Below, piece after piece: positions 1 through 5,302 of a stretch of DNA of 19,215 nt. Each line of letters begins with the position of its first letter. Positions within the stretch are counted from its first letter, which is position 1. The position numbers were made by a program, and so were the translations under genes. Source of the DNA: Clostridia bacterium (lineage in GTDB: Bacteria > Bacillota > Clostridia > Oscillospirales > Acutalibacteraceae). The stretch lies in assembly GCA_017439205.1 (NCBI GenBank), contig JAFRSZ010000272.1, forward strand, positions 1 to 19,215, given 5' to 3'. The notes below the pieces were generated by a model, which saw only the letters and a list, made by a program, of their open reading frames with translations, was not told the origin of the DNA and ran no database searches.

Positions 1-4
1 AAGC

Positions 5-98
5 GAAGTCGCCCCTCAGGTAATCAGCTCCGAAGGAGCGTCTTCATTTCTTCATTAGCGAAACGTCTTCATTAGCCCCGCAAGGGGCGACTTCATTA
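5..98. repeat. Repeat-rich non-coding segment with four copies of CTTCATT (two as CTTCATTAGC), enclosed by a 12-bp perfect inverted repeat (5-16 vs 83-94) and a GCCCC-GCAA-GGGGC hairpin
   Basis: CTTCATT occurs at 42-48, 50-56, 67-73 and 91-97. GAAGTCGCCCCT (5-16) is the exact reverse complement of AGGGGCGACTTC (83-94). A GNRA-looped hairpin spans 75-88. There is no ORF, and the segment abuts the bidirectional terminator. Confidence 0.5.
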
Positions 99-125
99 AA
101 AAAGCACGCCTGAGCGTGCTTTTTT
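98..125. terminator. Bidirectional intrinsic terminator: GCACGC-CTGA-GCGTGC hairpin with A6 on the 5' side and T6 on the 3' side
   Basis: Perfect 6-bp GC-rich stem 104-109/114-119 with a 4-nt loop. A T-run 120-125 serves the plus strand and an A-run 98-103 serves the minus strand. It lies immediately 3' of tRNA-Trp on the minus strand. Confidence 0.7.
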
Positions 126-126
126 C

Positions 127-202
127 TGGCAGGGGCAGAAGGACTTGAACCCTCGGCACGCGGTTTTGGAGACCGCTGCTCTACCAACTGAGCTATACCC
201 CT
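127..202 (-). tRNA. trnW: tRNA-Trp (anticodon CCA), 76 nt with encoded CCA
   Basis: The reverse complement folds as a cloverleaf: acceptor AGGGGTA/TGCCCCT, D-stem GCTC/GAGC, anticodon stem GCGGT/ACCGC with loop CTCCAAA (anticodon CCA), and T-arm GAGGG-TTCAAGT-CCTTC. Discriminator is G followed by CCA. Confidence 0.9.
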
Positions 203-216
203 ATATTCAAATGATG

Positions 217-293
217 TGGTGGACCATCAGGGACTCGAACCCCGGACCGACCGGTTATGAGCCGGTTGCTCTAACCAACTGAGCTAATGGTCC
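217..293 (-). tRNA. trnM: tRNA-Met (anticodon CAT), elongator-type; could alternatively be tRNA-Ile2 (lysidine-modified CAU). 77 nt with encoded CCA
   Basis: The reverse complement is GGACCATTAGCTCAGTTGGTTAGAGCAACCGGCTCATAACCGGTCGGTCCGGGGTTCGAGTCCCTGATGGTCCACCA. The anticodon loop is CTCATAA and the T-loop is TTCGAGT. Position 1-72 is fully paired and the anticodon stem has no 3xG-C run, so it is not an initiator. Confidence 0.88.
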
Positions 294-310
294 TTGCCGA
301 CTGCCCCATT

Positions 311-339
311 ATTATATATGGACGGTAATAAAAAGTCAA
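311..339 (-). promoter_or_regulatory. Sigma-A type promoter for the tRNA-Met/tRNA-Trp unit: TTGACT-17-TATAAT
   Basis: On the minus strand the -35 TTGACT lies at 334-339 and the -10 TATAAT at 311-316, with an exact 17-nt spacer. The tRNA 5' end (293) is 17 nt downstream of the -10. The element sits 9 nt after the RT stop codon. Confidence 0.65.
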
Positions 340-348
340 GCATTATTT

Positions 349-1566
349 TTATTTATTTTTACCGGTCCTGTCTTCGCGGAAAACGTAGTATTCATGCACA
401 AGGCTCCGGTAGCCGAGCGCCTTCAGATCTTCGTACCTCGCGTTATACCGCGCTTTCGTGCGCGTATCTGTCAGCAGATACCGGATGCAGTCCTGCGCGT
501 AGCGGTCGATCTCGCCGAGCCGCTGCGCGGTTGTGATTACGGGGAAATACCAGAGCGACCACGTAAGCTCGTTATCGCCCGCGCTCTCAAACAGTTTTCG
601 GTTGAAAACGCGAATAAAAGCCTTCGCCGCTTTTTCATTCGGCAGGTCGCTGCGTTTCCGCCAGCGGGCAAGGGCTCTGGTTTTCCTGCGCATTTTCGCT
701 TTGAGTTTCTGCATCGACGCGGGGGCGACGTCCACTTCCCCGTTTTTGTACTCAAACCCAAGATAGATCCACCCTGTTTCGGGGGTGAACCGATCTTCTT
801 TTTTTTCATTCACCGAAAGGCCGTGCGTCAAAAGCTGCGCGCGGATCTCAGATGCATACGCTTCTGCCTTCTCCGCCGAATCCGCAAAAACAATGATATC
901 GTCCGAGTATCTGGCGTACAGAACGCCGCGTTCGGCAAAGACTGCGTCAAGATCGCCGAGATACAGATTCGCAAAAAACGCGGACAACGGCGTTCCCGCC
1001 ATGATGCCCTTTTGTTCCGTTACCGGTTTCCCGTTATCCATAACGTAAGGCTCGCAAAGCAGGCTTTCAAGAAAACGGCAGAGCGCGGCGTCATCACGAA
1101 GGATTCCGCGCAGTTTTACGAGCAGGGGTTCTATGGGGATGGAATTGAAATAATCGCTCACGTCCGCTTTATACACGTACATCCCGCGCATACCGGGCGC
1201 GTATTTCAGGCGCAGAACGGCGTCTTTTGCGGTTCGCCCGGGACGGAACGAATACAGATTGACTGAAAACACAGCGTCGTATTCGCGCAGCATCAGCCAG
1301 GTAAGCAGCTTCAGAACGGTGTTCTCCGCAAACGGATAGGTATATACCGTGCGCTTCTTCTGCGAGCTCATTTTGCATACGACGCTCTTTTTCGGAAGCG
1401 GGAACCGCCCGCCCGCAGCGATCTTTTCACATACGGGCAGGTAGGCCGCTGTGTCGATAAACGACCGCAGATCCCGCAGAAAGCTTTTCGGGCAGGACAG
1501 ATTGCTTTTATATTCGTAAAATGCCTCCCACATTTCGGGGCGGGACAAAAGATCAAGAAGACTCAT
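349..1566 (-). CDS. Stand-alone group II intron-like reverse transcriptase (RT fingers/palm plus maturase-like thumb/X domain; no endonuclease domain). The ORF track extends to a TTG at 1572; the first ATG is at 1564-1566
   Basis: The translation carries RT motifs. Motif 1-like is KRTVYTYPF..VLKLLTWL. Motif 2 is NLYSFRPGRTAKDAV, matching the group-II SYGFRPGRS. Motif 3 is YVYKADVSDYFNSI. Motif 4 is GTPLSAFFANLYLGDLD. Motif 5 is the catalytic YARYSDDIIVF (YxDD). Motif 6/7 is LSVNEKK...GWIYLGFEY. The C-terminal ~110 aa resemble a group II maturase (GIIM) domain (LTWSLWYF...IDRYAQDCIRYLL). The retron NAxxH and VTG motifs are absent, and so is the DGR SQ motif. Confidence 0.85.
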   Translation of the reverse strand: MSLLDLLSRPEMWEAFYEYKSNLSCPKSFLRDLRSFIDTAAYLPVCEKIAAGGRFPLPKKSVVCKMSSQKKRTVYTYPFAENTVLKLLTWLMLREYDAVFSVNLYSFRPGRTAKDAVLRLKYAPGMRGMYVYKADVSDYFNSIPIEPLLVKLRGILRDDAALCRFLESLLCEPYVMDNGKPVTEQKGIMAGTPLSAFFANLYLGDLDAVFAERGVLYARYSDDIIVFADSAEKAEAYASEIRAQLLTHGLSVNEKKEDRFTPETGWIYLGFEYKNGEVDVAPASMQKLKAKMRRKTRALARWRKRSDLPNEKAAKAFIRVFNRKLFESAGDNELTWSLWYFPVITTAQRLGEIDRYAQDCIRYLLTDTRTKARYNARYEDLKALGYRSLVHEYYVFREDRTGKNK

Positions 1567-1572
1567 AATCAA

Positions 1573-1757
1573 TAAAAAACAGCGCCCCGCAGACAGTAAA
1601 GCCCGCGGAGGCGCAAACCAAAACGAAAACAGAAAGGATTAAATCCCGGTAATTCCGGGATATACCGGGCCGTACATACGCGAACTGCCTGCGAAGTTTT
1701 ATAAGGCGTATGCCGGGTCCGCCGCAGGCGCAAAGCGTTCTGTTTTCGGTTTTGCCG
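1573..1757 (-). ncRNA. Candidate structured non-coding RNA element between the nuclease-fold gene and the RT gene. It may be an RT-associated ncRNA or a regulatory leader
   Basis: This 185-nt intergenic region has no ORF. An 11-bp perfect inverted repeat CGAAAACAGAA/TTCTGTTTTCG (1738-1748 vs 1624-1634) brackets the region. Inside it are nested stems GCCTGCG...CGCAGGC and GGCG...CGCC. There is a cluster of three CCGG-containing arms: GCCCGG tatat CCCGG, and TCCCGG-AATTA-CCGGGA as a perfect 6-bp hairpin. A GC hairpin plus T7 (minus-strand terminator-like, 1575-1612) ends 6 nt before the RT start. Confidence 0.3.
1624..1748 (-). repeat. 11-bp perfect inverted repeat pair (1624-1634 and 1738-1748) flanking the intergenic structured region
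   Basis: Plus strand 1624-1634 is cgaaaacagaa and plus strand 1738-1748 is ttctgttttcg. They are exact reverse complements spaced 103 nt apart, and 3-4 further pairs are possible beyond a 1-nt bulge. Confidence 0.6.
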
Positions 1758-2285
1758 TTATCTGAGAACCTTGCCGATGCGTTCCGTCACATATTTGCGG
1801 GTGTTCCACCAGCCGCTGTGGTCATAATAGAACCGCAGATACGGCACGCCTTCGGCTTCGGCGGCACGGCGGAAGCGCTGCGCTTCGCTGGATTCGCTTT
1901 TGAGCTCAACGATCAGCACCTTTGCGCCGTCACGGAAGAAGGTGTATATCGGGCTGAAGCTGTTTGATCCGGGCGCGGAAGTAAACGTATACGCGCCGAA
2001 ATCCTCACGGAAGATCTTTTCAAAATACTGGATATACGTACCGTTAAAATTATACTGATTTTCCTCTGCGGGAATATTGTCGTAAAAAGAATCGCCGTCT
2101 GGATATACGGATGCGGGAGTGGGCGCGGATTGCTGCGCTGCGGGCCTCGGCTGCGCCGTATGCTGCGAGGGTTTTTCAAACTGCAGCTTATCGGCTGCGT
2201 CCTTTAATTCCTGCGCCGCTTCCTTCATTTTATTGAGCGCGGATTCAACGTTTTTATCTGCGAACAGCTTATCGAACAAACCCAT
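1758..2285 (-). CDS. Small PD-(D/E)xK nuclease-fold protein (DUF559/Vsr-like C-terminal domain) with an N-terminal helical segment and a P/Q/A-rich linker. The true start is the ATG at 2283-2285, not the track's 2315
   Basis: The start has the RBS AGGAGG 7 nt upstream of ATG GGT TTG (MGLFDKLF...). The C-terminal domain carries a PD-(D/E)xK-like signature, FFRDGAKVLIVELKS, with the spacing D..(7)..E-L-K. It also has a DUF559-like tail, RFRRAAEAEGVPYLRFYYD, matching R..R..LE..GW.VLRF. Confidence 0.6.
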   Translation of the reverse strand: MGLFDKLFADKNVESALNKMKEAAQELKDAADKLQFEKPSQHTAQPRPAAQQSAPTPASVYPDGDSFYDNIPAEENQYNFNGTYIQYFEKIFREDFGAYTFTSAPGSNSFSPIYTFFRDGAKVLIVELKSESSEAQRFRRAAEAEGVPYLRFYYDHSGWWNTRKYVTERIGKVLR

Positions 2286-2385
2286 AATGATCCTCCTGCA
2301 AAAATAGTGTTTCAAATAAAACTGGCCGATAAACGCATAGGGATACCGGCCGGATTTTGTCTGTTAAGATGAATCGTCACATTGA

Positions 2386-2538
2386 TCAGTCTAAGGACGT
2401 AATGCCGGTCGCAAAGGAAAACAGGCCGCCTATTCTCTGAAAAATGTCCGTAAGATAAGAGAGGACAACTGCAAGCACCTGCAGCGCGGGAACAGCTCTT
2501 GAAACAGCGCCGTCCAGATTAACGCCTTCTTTATTCAT
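2386..2538 (-). CDS. Possible small ORF (50 aa, hydrophobic; MNKEGVNLDGAVSRAVPALQVLAVVLSYLTDIFQRIGGLFSFATGITSLD) within the long leader
   Basis: The RBS GAGGT sits 7 nt upstream of the ATG at 2536-2538. The frame is open to TGA at 2386-2388. The ORF starts ~45 nt downstream of the predicted promoter. It falls below the 60-aa cutoff of the supplied ORF track, and it contains one predicted hydrophobic helix. Confidence 0.25.
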   Translation of the reverse strand: MNKEGVNLDGAVSRAVPALQVLAVVLSYLTDIFQRIGGLFSFATGITSLD

Positions 2539-2592
2539 TGCAAATACCTCAACGGAATAAATCCGTCCCTTTCTTTATATTTTTTCATAATG

Positions 2593-2621
2593 ATTATACA
2601 ATACTTTCGGCAAAAAAGCAA
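2593..2621 (-). promoter_or_regulatory. Sigma-A type promoter TTGCTT-17-TATAAT (TG adjacent to the -10) driving the leader, nuclease-fold gene and RT
   Basis: On the minus strand the -35 lies at 2616-2621 and the -10 at 2593-2598, with an exact 17-nt spacer. It is located just after the stop of the PP2C-like gene. The predicted transcription start is ~300 nt upstream of the nuclease-fold gene start. Confidence 0.5.
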
Positions 2622-2640
2622 GCAGTTTTTTTATATGCGG

Positions 2641-3987
2641 TCAATCCTCATCGCCGCCTTCTTCGCTGCCTTCTTCACCGCCCTGATTTTCAGTGGAAAC
2701 ATCGCCGGTCTCGGGCTCCTGCGAAGAGGTGGGTTCTGTGGATTCTTCTGCATCGGTTGAGCCTTCGGTAGGTTCCTCTTCCCGTTCGGTGGTGGGGACC
2801 GTTGCGGGCTCTTCTTCGGTTTCATCCTCTTCCGGATAATTGGCTCTTGTTGGGGCGGACGTCGCTTTTTCTGTTGTCGGGGCTTCGGTGGTGGACTCCG
2901 CCGTTGTGGATACTTCAGTGGTTGAAGTTTCACTGGGTTTCTGCGTCGTGGACGTCTGCGCGGCGGCATTCTGCGATTCGCTTACCGAAACAGAAGCTGA
3001 AACGGAGCTGGGATCGACCGTGGAATCGCCGGGGTCTCCGTGGGATTCGGACCAGTATTTGATACCGAACAGAACACCAGCGATCACCGCGCACGCAAGA
3101 AGCAGAATCAGGAACAAACGTCCTGCCTTTTTGCCCTTGCTCACCGGAGCGGTTTCTTCTTCGCCGCCTTCTTCCTCAGGCTGCTCTTCGGCATGCTGTT
3201 CGGTTTTATCCGCGTCTTCTTCGGTAATCTCTTCAGCAGCGGCATGGGCAGCTGCAGCGGCGGCAGGAACCTCGGCAGGCGCTTTTGCGGCAGAAGGCTC
3301 GGCTTCGGTAATCTTAATTACGATGGCGCTGACGGCTTCTTTGCAGCCGTATTTTGCCGCCTGCGACGCGATCAGAGAAACGATCTTTTTCACATCACCC
3401 GCAGCGTTTTTGCAAACGGCTTCCAGCAGACCTGCGGGAAGGGACGACACCGTTTTACCGGAAAGCAGAATAAAGATATCTCCCGCCTTAACGTTGCTGC
3501 ACTGGGCAACGCCGAACGAGGATTTATTATCCGAAAAACCAATCTGCTGAGGAACGATCTCGATAAAAGTATCGTCATAAAAAGTATATGCTTTGTTGCC
3601 GCCTGCGGTGGCAATATAAACCGTATCGTCCACACCGGTAAGGATCGAGAAATCGCAGTCGGATGAAGAGAAACCGGTTTCGTTCAGCACTTTTGCAAAG
3701 GCTTTCAGATAATCCGCGATCAGCACCGCATCATTGGAACCGTCCTCGCTGAATTTTTCAACGCAGGACCGGAACAGGCTCGCCGCACTCTCCGCAGTCC
3801 CCTTCTTATCCGAACTCGCAAGCACATAGTAAGGGCGGTCGGAACCCGTACCGGCGGCACGGACCCCCTTTTCGCCGTTGACGACGTCTTTCGGCCACAG
3901 CTTACCGGAAACGTTTACGTAATCCGTATTAAAATCTCTTGCGGCGCCTTTTCTGGAAACGACCGCGGTTTCAACTGAAATGGACAT
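2641..3987 (-). CDS. PP2C-like (apparently catalytically degenerate) phosphatase-fold domain, followed by one transmembrane helix and a long acidic Ser/Thr/Glu-rich low-complexity tail
   Basis: The RBS GGAGG lies 8 nt upstream of ATG TCC ATT (MSISVETAVV). The N-terminus matches the PP2C pattern SR.GAAR.FNTDY. The canonical DGMGG metal motif is replaced by SSDKKGT and the CSDGL motif by LSGKT. The TM segment is LFLILLLACAVIAGVLFGIKYW. The tail has STTE/EEE repeats. The gene overlaps the folC end by 17 nt. Confidence 0.6.
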   Translation of the reverse strand: MSISVETAVVSRKGAARDFNTDYVNVSGKLWPKDVVNGEKGVRAAGTGSDRPYYVLASSDKKGTAESAASLFRSCVEKFSEDGSNDAVLIADYLKAFAKVLNETGFSSSDCDFSILTGVDDTVYIATAGGNKAYTFYDDTFIEIVPQQIGFSDNKSSFGVAQCSNVKAGDIFILLSGKTVSSLPAGLLEAVCKNAAGDVKKIVSLIASQAAKYGCKEAVSAIVIKITEAEPSAAKAPAEVPAAAAAAHAAAEEITEEDADKTEQHAEEQPEEEGGEEETAPVSKGKKAGRLFLILLLACAVIAGVLFGIKYWSESHGDPGDSTVDPSSVSASVSVSESQNAAAQTSTTQKPSETSTTEVSTTAESTTEAPTTEKATSAPTRANYPEEDETEEEPATVPTTEREEEPTEGSTDAEESTEPTSSQEPETGDVSTENQGGEEGSEEGGDED

Positions 3988-5302
3988 GCGAATTTCCTCC
4001 AATATATTTATAATCTTTCACTGTTTTCAATAAATGCGCTCTCACGTCGGACGCAAGATAAAGCGAACCGCAAACAACGAGCATATCGTAATCTTTCAGC
4101 TGAATGAAAGCCTCGTCGATCGCGCGTATGGGATCTTCCAGCGCCTGCGCCTCGGTTCCGCCGCGCCGCACAATACCGGCAAATTCCTCCGCAGGCATCG
4201 CGCGCGGGTTGGACGGCGTAACAGCGATCACCTTTGCGAAATACGGGCAGAGATGCTCCGTTGCCTTTTCACAGTCTTTATCTCGCATCATGCCCATCAC
4301 GGCGAGGATGCGTTTATTTGAAGCGAACCGCTCCAACAGCGCAGCCAGCGCAGCGGTGGAGCCGTCGTTATGGGAGCCGTCGAGAAGGATCAGCGGATCT
4401 CTGCAAACGATCTCCGTGCGGGCGGGGATAAACGACGCTTCAATACCTTCCTTGATCTGCTTTCTTGTGATATCGAGGCCGTTCACGCCGATCACTTCAC
4501 ACGCTTTCACGGACAGAGCTGCGTTCTGCAGCTGATGCTCCCCGGCAAACGGAATATGGATAGGCGTATCTCTGTATGTAACGTCGGCGCCGTCAAGCGA
4601 AGTCTCCCCTACCTGAAACAGGTCTTCCGAAGCCGCTTCAAACAGGAACGAGCCTTTTTCTGCGGCGACGGCGCGGATCACCCGGGCAGCCTCGGGCGCC
4701 TGCGATGCGGTTGTAACTGAGTGGCAGCGCGGTTTGATAATACCGCATTTTTCGTACGCGATCTCACCGAGCGTATTGCCCAGAACATTCATATGATCCA
4801 TCGAAACGGAAGTGATCACGCTGACGATCGGATCTTCAATGATGTTCGTTGCGTCGTACCTGCCGCCGAGCCCGGTTTCCAGCACAGCCACCCTGCAGCC
4901 CGCCTGCGCGAAATACAGGAAGGCCGCGGCGGTGATCGCCTCGAATTCGGTGGGCGAAACGCCCTGCGCGTTCAGAGCAAGAACGGCCTCTTTGACCTTT
5001 TCGGTGACCGAAACGAGCGCATCGGGCGGGATCATCCGGTTATCCACCTGTATGCGCTCTCTGAAATCGAGCACGTACGGCGAGGTATACAAGCCGGTTT
5101 TGAACCCCGCGACGCGAAGGATATTTGAAATCTCGGTGCACACCGTGCCCTTGCCGTTGGTTCCCGCAACGTGCACATAACGCATCTGTTTCTCGGGATG
5201 CCCCAGATATTCGCACAGAGCGCCGATCCGCTCAAGCCCGGGCCGGATGCCGAAGCGTTCCAGCGAATGGTAGAACGCGACTGCGCTGTTATAATCCATC
5301 AT
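3971..5302 (-). CDS. folC: Folylpolyglutamate synthase / dihydrofolate synthase (FolC, Mur ligase family)
   Basis: The P-loop VHVAGTNGKGTV is typical of Mur ligases. The ORF has the full-length FolC architecture (443 aa). Its ATG sits 1 nt after the valS TGA, so the two are translationally coupled. This matches the valS-folC synteny known from Bacillus. Confidence 0.85.
   Translation of the reverse strand: MMDYNSAVAFYHSLERFGIRPGLERIGALCEYLGHPEKQMRYVHVAGTNGKGTVCTEISNILRVAGFKTGLYTSPYVLDFRERIQVDNRMIPPDALVSVTEKVKEAVLALNAQGVSPTEFEAITAAAFLYFAQAGCRVAVLETGLGGRYDATNIIEDPIVSVITSVSMDHMNVLGNTLGEIAYEKCGIIKPRCHSVTTASQAPEAARVIRAVAAEKGSFLFEAASEDLFQVGETSLDGADVTYRDTPIHIPFAGEHQLQNAALSVKACEVIGVNGLDITRKQIKEGIEASFIPARTEIVCRDPLILLDGSHNDGSTAALAALLERFASNKRILAVMGMMRDKDCEKATEHLCPYFAKVIAVTPSNPRAMPAEEFAGIVRRGGTEAQALEDPIRAIDEAFIQLKDYDMLVVCGSLYLASDVRAHLLKTVKDYKYIGGNSHVHFS

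Follow-up and report, generated by a model that had tools for sequence, protein, structure and literature searches.

The RT-5 RNA is a conserved, pseudoknotted element between a predicted nuclease-fold protein gene and a UG26 reverse transcriptase gene in Clostridia

The stretch of DNA analyzed here (19,215 nucleotides [nt], contig JAFRSZ010000272.1 of the Clostridia bacterium assembly GCA_017439205.1, hereafter the window) carries its genes on the minus strand throughout, and a spacer at 1573-1757 separates a reverse transcriptase (RT) gene (349-1566, minus strand) from a gene for a protein of 175 amino acids (aa) (1758-2285, minus strand). We found that this spacer encodes a copy of the RT-5 RNA (Rfam RF03026), a catalogued family without an explained function, and that the RT is a full-length member of group UG26 in class 2 of the UG/Abi RTs. 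The three parts make up a compact, self-contained cassette of about 2 kb in the order nuclease-fold protein gene (the fold being a structure prediction), RT-5 noncoding RNA (ncRNA), and UG26 RT. RT-5 has been in Rfam since a 2017 survey without a function, and UG26 was named in 2022 without an ncRNA or a mechanism; our analysis links the two. For the window alone, the result is mainly the correct annotation of an intergenic region. What is new beyond it is the RT-5/UG26 link itself, a closing helix (P0) and a pseudoknot in the RNA, a near-obligate partner protein with a predicted nuclease fold, evidence for independent transcription of the RNA, and a hypothesis about its template.

The match to RF03026 lies at 1631-1733 on the minus strand, covers all 104 model positions, and scores 89.5 bits against a gathering score of 45.7 (E = 8e-18); it ends 65 nt 5' of the RT start codon (ATG at 1566) on the same strand. 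RT-5 is one of the motifs RT-1 to RT-19, which were found beside RT genes by comparative genomics in a study that gave the RT motifs neither a function nor an RT class and speculated that they may be retrons (Weinberg et al. 2017, NAR 45:10811, PMC5737381). The fold described below shares with the Rfam family the P1-P2-P3 arm, the terminal hairpin, and the position 5' of an RT gene, but the Rfam model stops short of P0 and its consensus structure line is without the pseudoknot, both of which covary in our analysis. The predicted fold of the spacer RNA, at -78.5 kcal/mol, is also far more stable than that of shuffled sequences (-59.0 ± 4.4 kcal/mol, z = -4.5), none of 200 shuffles being as good. 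The initial annotation had read the spacer as a structured RNA closed by an 11-bp inverted repeat, and two of the checks that it named, an Rfam search and a test for covariation among spacers beside homologous RTs, bear this reading out.

Conservation of the fold was assessed across 80 genome loci that hold the closest relatives of the RT (55 to 68% identity), mostly from metagenome-assembled genomes. From these, 75 RT-5 copies were anchored on conserved words and aligned with MAFFT, and the helices tested were those of Rfam together with P0 and the pseudoknot, a fold partly derived from the same sequences. One locus (L079) was omitted because a run of 22 N (3872-3893) falls exactly over the most conserved 5' part of its RNA, namely, the pseudoknot strand and P1. 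In this alignment, 92% of the cells are paired, compared with 82% in shuffled and 37 to 48% in slid controls, compensatory changes occur in 41 of the 51 pairs, and the covariation score of 0.356 (0.171 in shuffles) was reached by 0 of 500 shuffles. The spacer is thus conserved beside homologous RTs, and altogether at least 93 independent copies of RT-5 show this conservation with covariation. The strand is equally clear: R1, a covariance model built here, detects a single copy in each locus, at 112 to 167 bits in the RT sense orientation, whereas no antisense score exceeds 27 bits, and G-U pairs are frequent in the sense-strand RNA (for example, in 34 of 73 sequences at one P1 pair).

The fold that emerges is a long purine/pyrimidine helix, P0, which closes a core consisting of a stacked P1-P2-P3 arm and the hairpin P4, and the strand immediately 5' of P1 pairs with the P3 loop in a 7-bp pseudoknot. 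In the window, the inverted repeat (1624-1634 and 1738-1748) is perfect over 11 bp, a length reached in 3 of 2,000 mononucleotide shuffles of the 185-nt spacer, and grows to 16 bp with one bulged C (1754-1738 with 1634-1619). The two arms of P0 are accordingly the purine-rich CAAAAC-C-GAAAACAGAA on the 5' side (1738-1754, minus strand), wholly outside the Rfam match, and the pyrimidine-rich UUCUGUUUUCG-UUUUG on the 3' side (1619-1634, minus strand), and inverted repeat, minimum-free-energy fold, and covariation agree on them. Across the 75 copies, P0 has 17 aligned pairs, 16 of them with compensatory changes and 90% of the cells paired, and a typical sequence is AAAACAGAAAGAGAA / UUCUCUUUCUGUUUU.

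Within P0, on the minus strand, a junction of sequence CGCUUUGC (1730-1737), with near-invariant G, C, and GC positions by column conservation, leads to the 5' strand of the pseudoknot, GCCUGCG (1723-1729), which pairs with CGCAGGC in the P3 hairpin loop (1687-1693). Both strands were recognized by inverted repeat and covariation: the seven pairs are formed in 99.6% of the cells among 73 distinct sequences, with compensatory changes at three pairs (UA to CG five times, CG to UA once, CG to GU three times). By reasoning on its geometry, this would be an ordinary H-type or loop-strand pseudoknot in which a single nucleotide, starting from the 3' end of the 5' strand of P3, spans the 7-bp helix. 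The 5' strands of P1 (CGGACC, 1721-1716) and P2 (GCAUACGCC, 1713-1705) fill 1705-1721, and their 3' strands (P2, 1682-1674; P1, GGCCCG, 1671-1666) fill 1666-1682, with an invariant AC in between; compensatory changes occur in 11 of the 15 pairs, and both helices are in the Rfam consensus, as is hairpin P3 (AACU/AGUU, 1683-1698), which encloses the pseudoknot loop and has compensatory changes in 4 of 4 pairs. Hairpin P4 (AUCCCGG-AAUUA-CCGGGAU, 1643-1661) follows, with 7 of 8 pairs compensatory, and the single-stranded junction UUAAUCCU (1635-1642) joins it to the 3' arm of P0. In this last junction, the UUAA (alignment columns 251-254) is 99 to 100% conserved. Other invariant unpaired bases likewise sit at junctions, namely, CG..C after P0, GC before the pseudoknot, AC between P2 and P1, and GUA before P4, and at alignment column 26, two nucleotides 3' of the P0 5' arm, a G is nearly invariant (97%).

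The sequence GGCCCGG-UAUAU-CCCGG-AAUUA-CCGGGA (1673-1643) had suggested an RNA switch in which three CCGG arms form mutually exclusive hairpins. This did not hold up, as the arms fall into two covarying helices, the first arm being the 3' strand of P1 and the second and third arms forming P4. The alternative pairing of arm 1 with arm 3 reaches -11.9 kcal/mol in the window, but over 74 copies it averages -5.9 kcal/mol, compared with -4.2 for shuffled arms and with -8.3 and -11.0 for native P1 and P4. It is therefore strong only in the window and not across the family, and a switch by conserved mutually exclusive CCGG hairpins was rejected.

The protein encoded downstream of the RNA is a full-length UG26 RT. 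It has 405 aa, a YSDD motif, and an RVT_1 domain in Pfam with no fused extra domain, and it matches the PADLOC profile RT_UG26 over residues 1-398 of 398 profile positions (E = 1.2e-168, 559 bits), the next-best RT group being UG17, which is the defense-associated RT (DRT) DRT10 (E = 2.8e-30), and a generic RT model reaching 2.8e-33. By hidden Markov model (HMM) score, UG26 is nearest to UG17 (DRT10), UG4, DRT9, and UG27. An AlphaFold 2 (AF2) model of the RT (predicted local distance difference test [pLDDT] score, 91) has group II intron RTs as its closest folds (template modeling [TM] score, 0.72 to 0.77), followed by G2L4 and DRT9, the solved DRT9 RT being among the closest structural matches at a TM score of 0.65 to 0.67. 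UG26 was placed in class 2 of UG/Abi in a study that had 35 members, 9 of which had a COG2852 partner, and that reported no ncRNA for the group (Mestre et al. 2022, NAR 50:6084, PMC9226505). Our literature search found no later paper on UG26 or on the function of RT-5 and none that links RT-5 to UG26.

The accessory protein encoded upstream of the RNA matches the PADLOC family RTasCOG2852 (E = 9e-49) and has no match in Pfam, NCBIfam, or PDB sequences, so that it is informative only via its predicted fold. In an AF2 model that used database homologues (pLDDT, 82, and above 90 for residues 70-175), an N-terminal helix and a low-complexity linker precede a C-terminal domain with an alpha-beta-beta-beta-alpha-beta core, and this model assigns the domain a Vsr/DUF559-like fold of the PD-(D/E)xK type. 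The invariant residues are P72, Q77, Y87, F88, E127, Y149, Y153, GWWN158-161, Y165, and R169. One locus (L084, 132-1424) carries two tandem paralogous accessory genes 5' of a single RT-5 that is cut by the contig end.

The three components are tightly linked. In 75 of the 80 loci, RT-5 immediately precedes the RT, and in 74 an accessory gene on the same strand immediately precedes the RNA; two of the exceptions to this linkage are contig ends. The reverse approach, an RNA-first pattern scan of metagenomes, gave 18 genuine RT-5 copies among the 80 loci listed (the rest being mostly chance matches), and an RT lay directly downstream in 13 of these 18. The RT family is large, with 3,080 database proteins at E ≤ 1e-20, and relatives were found in at least 567 species-representative genomes, almost all of them of uncultured rumen or gut Clostridia. 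There is no recurrent third gene or conserved synteny around the cassette, the 399 flanking open reading frames (ORFs) falling into 301 clusters. Three RTs at 58 to 61% identity (L049, L073, and L074; RT at about 2707, 4001, and 4001) have neither RT-5 nor an accessory gene within about 4 kb on either side, and their RNA may possibly be encoded elsewhere in the genome. Their neighbors are ordinary metabolic, transporter, or tRNA-methyltransferase genes.

Between the RNA and the RT, the window contains what the initial annotation had described as a GC hairpin with seven T residues before the ATG of an RT without a Shine-Dalgarno (SD) sequence. The hairpin is real, a 13-bp GC stem at 1614-1582 of about -25 kcal/mol (-25.3) followed by UGUUUUUUA, and a terminator scan matched 1610-1585 on the minus strand, followed by CGCTGTTTTT. 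The run, which had been given as seven, is six consecutive T residues long; it ends 7 nt before the RT ATG, and the U-rich tract as a whole (UGUUUUUUAUU, 1581-1571) ends 4 nt before it. A GC-rich hairpin followed directly by a U-tract is what characterizes an intrinsic (Rho-independent) terminator, and by this sequence pattern we regard 1571-1614 (minus strand) as terminator-like. The lack of an SD-like sequence in the 25 nt before the RT ATG (tgcggggcgctgttttttattgatt) was also confirmed. That every other gene in the window has one is correct only in part, as an SD is present in all five genes with an unambiguous ATG (accessory [AGGAGG], SH3, HTH, GH92, and PRPP synthase), and the other starts are uncertain.

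Neither feature is integral to the module. A terminator-like hairpin with a U-tail lies between RNA and RT in only 13 of the 75 loci, with unrelated sequences, and an SD-like sequence precedes the RT in 50 of the 75 and is missing in 25, so that the terminator and the missing SD of the window are lineage traits rather than parts of a conserved arrangement. In the lineage of the window, the terminator at 1614-1582 would nevertheless end most transcripts after the RNA and, together with the SD-less start, would hold RT levels low compared with those of the RNA. This predicted scarcity matches published read counts for UG2 and UG28, in which the ncRNA outnumbers the RT mRNA more than 1,000-fold (Mestre et al. 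2022, PMC9226505). As for the start of transcription, a weak promoter-like site 5' of the accessory gene (TTGAAA-17-GATCAT, 2287-2315, minus strand), recognized by a consensus match at 9 of 12 positions, may drive the whole cassette. Seven loci (L054, L063, L067, L026, L053, L034, and L036) have a terminator-like GC hairpin with a U-run in the 40 to 60 nt between the accessory stop codon and the P0 5' arm; this leaves no room for a promoter, and RNA and RT would there need read-through or processing. The distance from RT-5 to the RT, 12 to 150 nt in other loci, is about 580 nt with an apparent small ORF in L032 (2090-2654).

Informative for transcription are three related loci without an accessory gene (L086, L122, and L160), in which a TTGATT-16-TATAAT promoter stops about 7 nt short of the start of P0, and a -10-like box, TGCTATAAT, occupies the same place about 7 nt before P0 in L070. 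In L086, RT-5 is a stand-alone gene, with the promoter at 6949-6922, the RNA at 6925-6767, and a strong terminator at 6756-6728 directly after P0; the UG26 RT (2426-1227) is 4.3 kb away, with a GH43 gene, another ORF, and a gene for a 794-aa HD-domain protein in between. The HD-domain gene ends exactly at the RT start, and its product may be an alternative partner. In L160 (2329-2540), an orphan RT-5 (131.9 bits) is again preceded by a TTGATT-16-TATAAT promoter of its own. Within 750 nt of it there is no RT, and the 3.2 kb of the locus contain neither RT nor accessory gene; a convergent GH43-like ORF follows, and the terminator hairpin of this ORF abuts RT-5. L070 (3846-5194) and L122 (1013-2402) have RT-5 and RT, and the accessory gene is missing. 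Judged from these promoter and terminator sequences and from the distance to the RT, RT-5 appears to be a discrete RNA whose 5' end lies at the P0 arm and which is able to act in trans, which argues against a purely cis-regulatory leader. As an alternative to the switch, the initial annotation had considered that a discrete ncRNA might be released upstream of the RT, and it is this alternative that fits best.

What such an RNA might do can be approached through the class 2 UG RTs that have been characterized together with an ncRNA, DRT2, DRT9, and DRT10, in all of which the ncRNA is scaffold and template. Since these relatives all copy their ncRNA, we propose that RT-5 is a discrete ncRNA that serves as both scaffold and repeatedly copied template for the UG26 RT and that the product controls the partner with the predicted nuclease fold, a reading by analogy to which we assign a probability of roughly 0.55. 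In this proposal, the UG26 RT would bind RT-5 as a scaffold and repeatedly copy a short internal template into DNA. The likeliest template would be the invariant single-stranded segment xUUUAA-YGN-yUU(U) between P4 and the P0 3' strand, the only long invariant single strand in RT-5, with P4 as the 5' boundary of the template. In the window, a template UUUAAUCC followed by UUU would yield (GGATTAAA)n or an A-rich product. This DNA would probably build up in response to a trigger, for example phage infection, and would in turn control the partner with the predicted nuclease fold. A role in defense is plausible by family membership.

DRT10, the UG17 system, offers a parallel. It makes telomerase-like tandem repeats from an A-B-A' template located between a boundary stem-loop and a basal stem (bioRxiv 10.1101/2025.10.16.682844 and 10.64898/2026.06.29.735271). 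Like the RT-5 cassette, it combines a class 2 UG RT (the second-best PADLOC family after UG26, E = 3e-30) with an ncRNA and an effector; the ends of its ncRNA form a basal stem with hairpins, and a short unpaired loop separates one hairpin from the 3' strand of this stem. The P4-P0 junction of RT-5 occupies the very position of the DRT10 template loop, which lies between SL5 and the basal stem SL1, and this position and the conservation of the junction make it our candidate template loop. The systems differ in that DRT10 has a SLATT effector where a nuclease-fold protein is predicted here, that the RT-5 loop is half as long, and that an A-B-A' arrangement is weakly indicated: x equals y in the direct repeat xUUU...yUU(U) in 43 of 74 copies versus 31 expected (naive p = 0.0008, uncorrected for phylogeny). 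The pseudoknot is not mentioned for the DRT10 RNA in either DRT10 paper. The more specific version of the proposal, an uncharacterized DRT-type immune system in which telomerase- or DRT10-like copying of the 8- to 9-nt P4-P0 loop produces (GGATTAAA)n that switches on a nuclease-fold effector, is one that we offer only tentatively and consider less likely than not.

DRT9 (UG28) synthesizes protein-primed poly-dA from a U-tract template, a U4 tract having been used in the experiments (Tang et al. 2025, PMC12483538), and it resembles the RT-5 cassette in having a class 2 UG RT preceded by a structured ncRNA of highly conserved sequence. In contrast to the DRT9 U-tract, the candidate loop of RT-5 has only an invariant UUU (followed by AA), and the UG26 RT falls short of the DRT9 RT by about 90 residues, is modeled without a free C-terminal Tyr tail, and goes with a near-obligate accessory protein. 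DRT2 (UG2), likewise a class 2 UG RT with an upstream ncRNA, makes rolling-circle cDNA that encodes Neo, and a stem in its ncRNA juxtaposes the ends of the template. An endless ORF of the DRT2/Neo type was ruled out, as concatemers of the RT-5 core have no stop-free frame in 52 of the 75 copies, the window included, and the core length modulo 3 is evenly spread (24, 31, and 20 copies).

Several observations weigh against the proposal that RT-5 is copied and that its product controls the partner. Every step past a conserved structured RNA beside an RT is an analogy, and the 80 loci, being those of the closest RT relatives, are a narrow sample. In the candidate template, the UUU and UU of the direct repeat are invariant and cannot covary, and the repeat signal is uncorrected for phylogeny; another direct repeat that is invariant, GUAC-N6-GUA flanking the 3' strand of P1, would be no less arbitrary a choice; and the template loop has 8 to 10 nt compared with about 19 nt in DRT10, with its 3' repeat overlapping the first P0 pairs. 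On the protein side, the conserved C-terminal tyrosines of the RT (HEYY) lie in a confidently predicted helix of the AF2 model and not in a free tail, which leaves protein priming unsupported; of the two marks of DRT10, a SLATT effector and a C-terminal Ser/Tyr priming residue, we found a nuclease fold and these helical tyrosines instead. Only one acidic residue, E127, is invariant in the core of the accessory protein, and a catalytic Asp or Lys is not conserved there, so that the PD-(D/E)xK set is incomplete and the protein, judged by its residues, is not assured to be an active nuclease and may be inactive. As to defense, Mestre et al. (2022, PMC9226505) found the prediction for UG26 inconclusive, the flanks vary between species and consist mostly of housekeeping genes (in the window and in L081 as elsewhere), and IMG/VR, INPHARED, and PLSDB contain no UG26 relative, only distant RTs below 30% identity.

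Among other explanations, the strongest competitor, though in our judgment an unlikely one, is that RT-5 is only a scaffold or regulator and that the UG26 RT makes untemplated, protein-primed DNA like AbiK, Abi-P2, DRT4, and DRT1. Untemplated synthesis is established in these other UG/Abi RTs, covariation revealed no template in RT-5, and its conserved unpaired bases sit mostly at helix junctions, as would be expected for protein or tertiary contacts. Yet the untemplated enzymes have not been described with an ncRNA, whereas the class 2 systems that have one all copy it, a pattern that a 2026 preprint generalizes to ncRNA-templated products of class 2 DRTs, and it is to UG17 (DRT10), UG4, DRT9, and UG27 that UG26 is closest by HMM score. 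We consider it improbable that the RNA is instead a cis-acting leader, an attenuator or riboswitch-like element in the 5' untranslated region of the RT that switches between a terminated or occluded and a read-through state. The window on its own would invite such a view, with its strong terminator, an SD-less RT start after a structure, and CCGG arms that can re-pair, and no more than 30 nt separate P0 from the RT start in 33 of the 75 loci. It is hard to reconcile, however, with helices that all covary as a single fold, with an alternative pairing that is not conserved, with a terminator in 13 and SD-like sequences in 50 of the 75 loci, and with L086, where promoter, RNA, and terminator form a unit of their own at 4.3 kb from the RT, and L160, where the RNA has no adjacent RT.

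Less probable again is a retron-like mode, in which P0 would act as the a1/a2 repeats, the conserved G would prime through its 2'-OH, and the RT would copy inward from the 3' arm to give branched RNA-DNA. The initial annotation had seen a retron-like organization here and had itself noted that no long msd stem is evident, and indeed none is present in the RT-5 core. What survives is a likeness of architecture: as in a retron msr-msd, an inverted repeat pairs the ends of an RNA that adjoins the RT gene. To this can be added the near-invariant G (97%) two nucleotides after the P0 5' arm and the retron speculation of Weinberg et al. (PMC5737381). A retron as such was ruled out by the RT profiles and the RNA architecture, as the RT belongs to another clade (best match UG26; the best retron model, NF038233, reaches 43.7 bits against a cutoff of 235), no NAxxH or VTG motif is visible in its sequence, and the RNA core is a pseudoknotted three-helix arm with a short hairpin, unlike msr-msd; the accessory gene, moreover, lies upstream and is not a known retron effector. 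The least credible account, chance structure or a functionless remnant of a mobile element such as a group II intron fragment, can draw on the label "group II intron reverse transcriptase domain-containing" that NCBI gives to homologous RTs and on the closeness of the RT fold to group II intron RTs. An Rfam scan of positions 1-3000 of the window at E ≤ 1, however, returned RT-5, tRNAs, and weak chance hits but no group II intron RNA, and the covariation in at least 93 independent copies, together with the fold z score of -4.5, effectively refutes it.

If RT-5 is copied as we propose, the cassette would bring the modes of class 2 UG reverse transcription to four, the new one being coupled to an effector with a predicted nuclease fold, and a pseudoknot beside the template would be a further parallel to telomerase RNA, one that the DRT10 papers do not mention for DRT10 RNAs. 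The near-invariant arrangement of protein, RNA, and RT defines a compact 2-kb system that is testable by the assays that solved DRT2, DRT9, and DRT10, and the refined RNA model, with P0, the pseudoknot, the candidate template loop, and a start at P0, can guide what to clone and mutate.

The surroundings of the cassette in the window comprise several minor features. Upstream, on the minus strand, lie a hydrophobic ORF of 50 aa (2386-2538) and a gene for a 453-aa protein (2641-4002) that has no Pfam match, a transmembrane segment, and a long acidic tail rich in Ser, Thr, and Glu. The close relative GCA_016648615.1, which shares the synteny of the window at 83% identity, has genes of corresponding size (50 and 444 residues) at the same two positions. 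The 50-aa ORF was not found in the other 80 loci, and it is therefore not part of the cassette. Directly after the RT, tRNA-Met (217-293) and tRNA-Trp (127-202) follow on the minus strand, with a near-consensus promoter (TTGACT-17-TATAAT, 339-311) inside the 3' flank of the RT, and a hairpin flanked by T-runs on both sides lies near these tRNAs at about 97-126. At the left edge of the window (38-100), CTTCATT occurs four times within about 60 nt, three of the copies being inside [GT]CTTCATTA, and the copies surround the GC hairpin GCCCCGCAAGGGGC.

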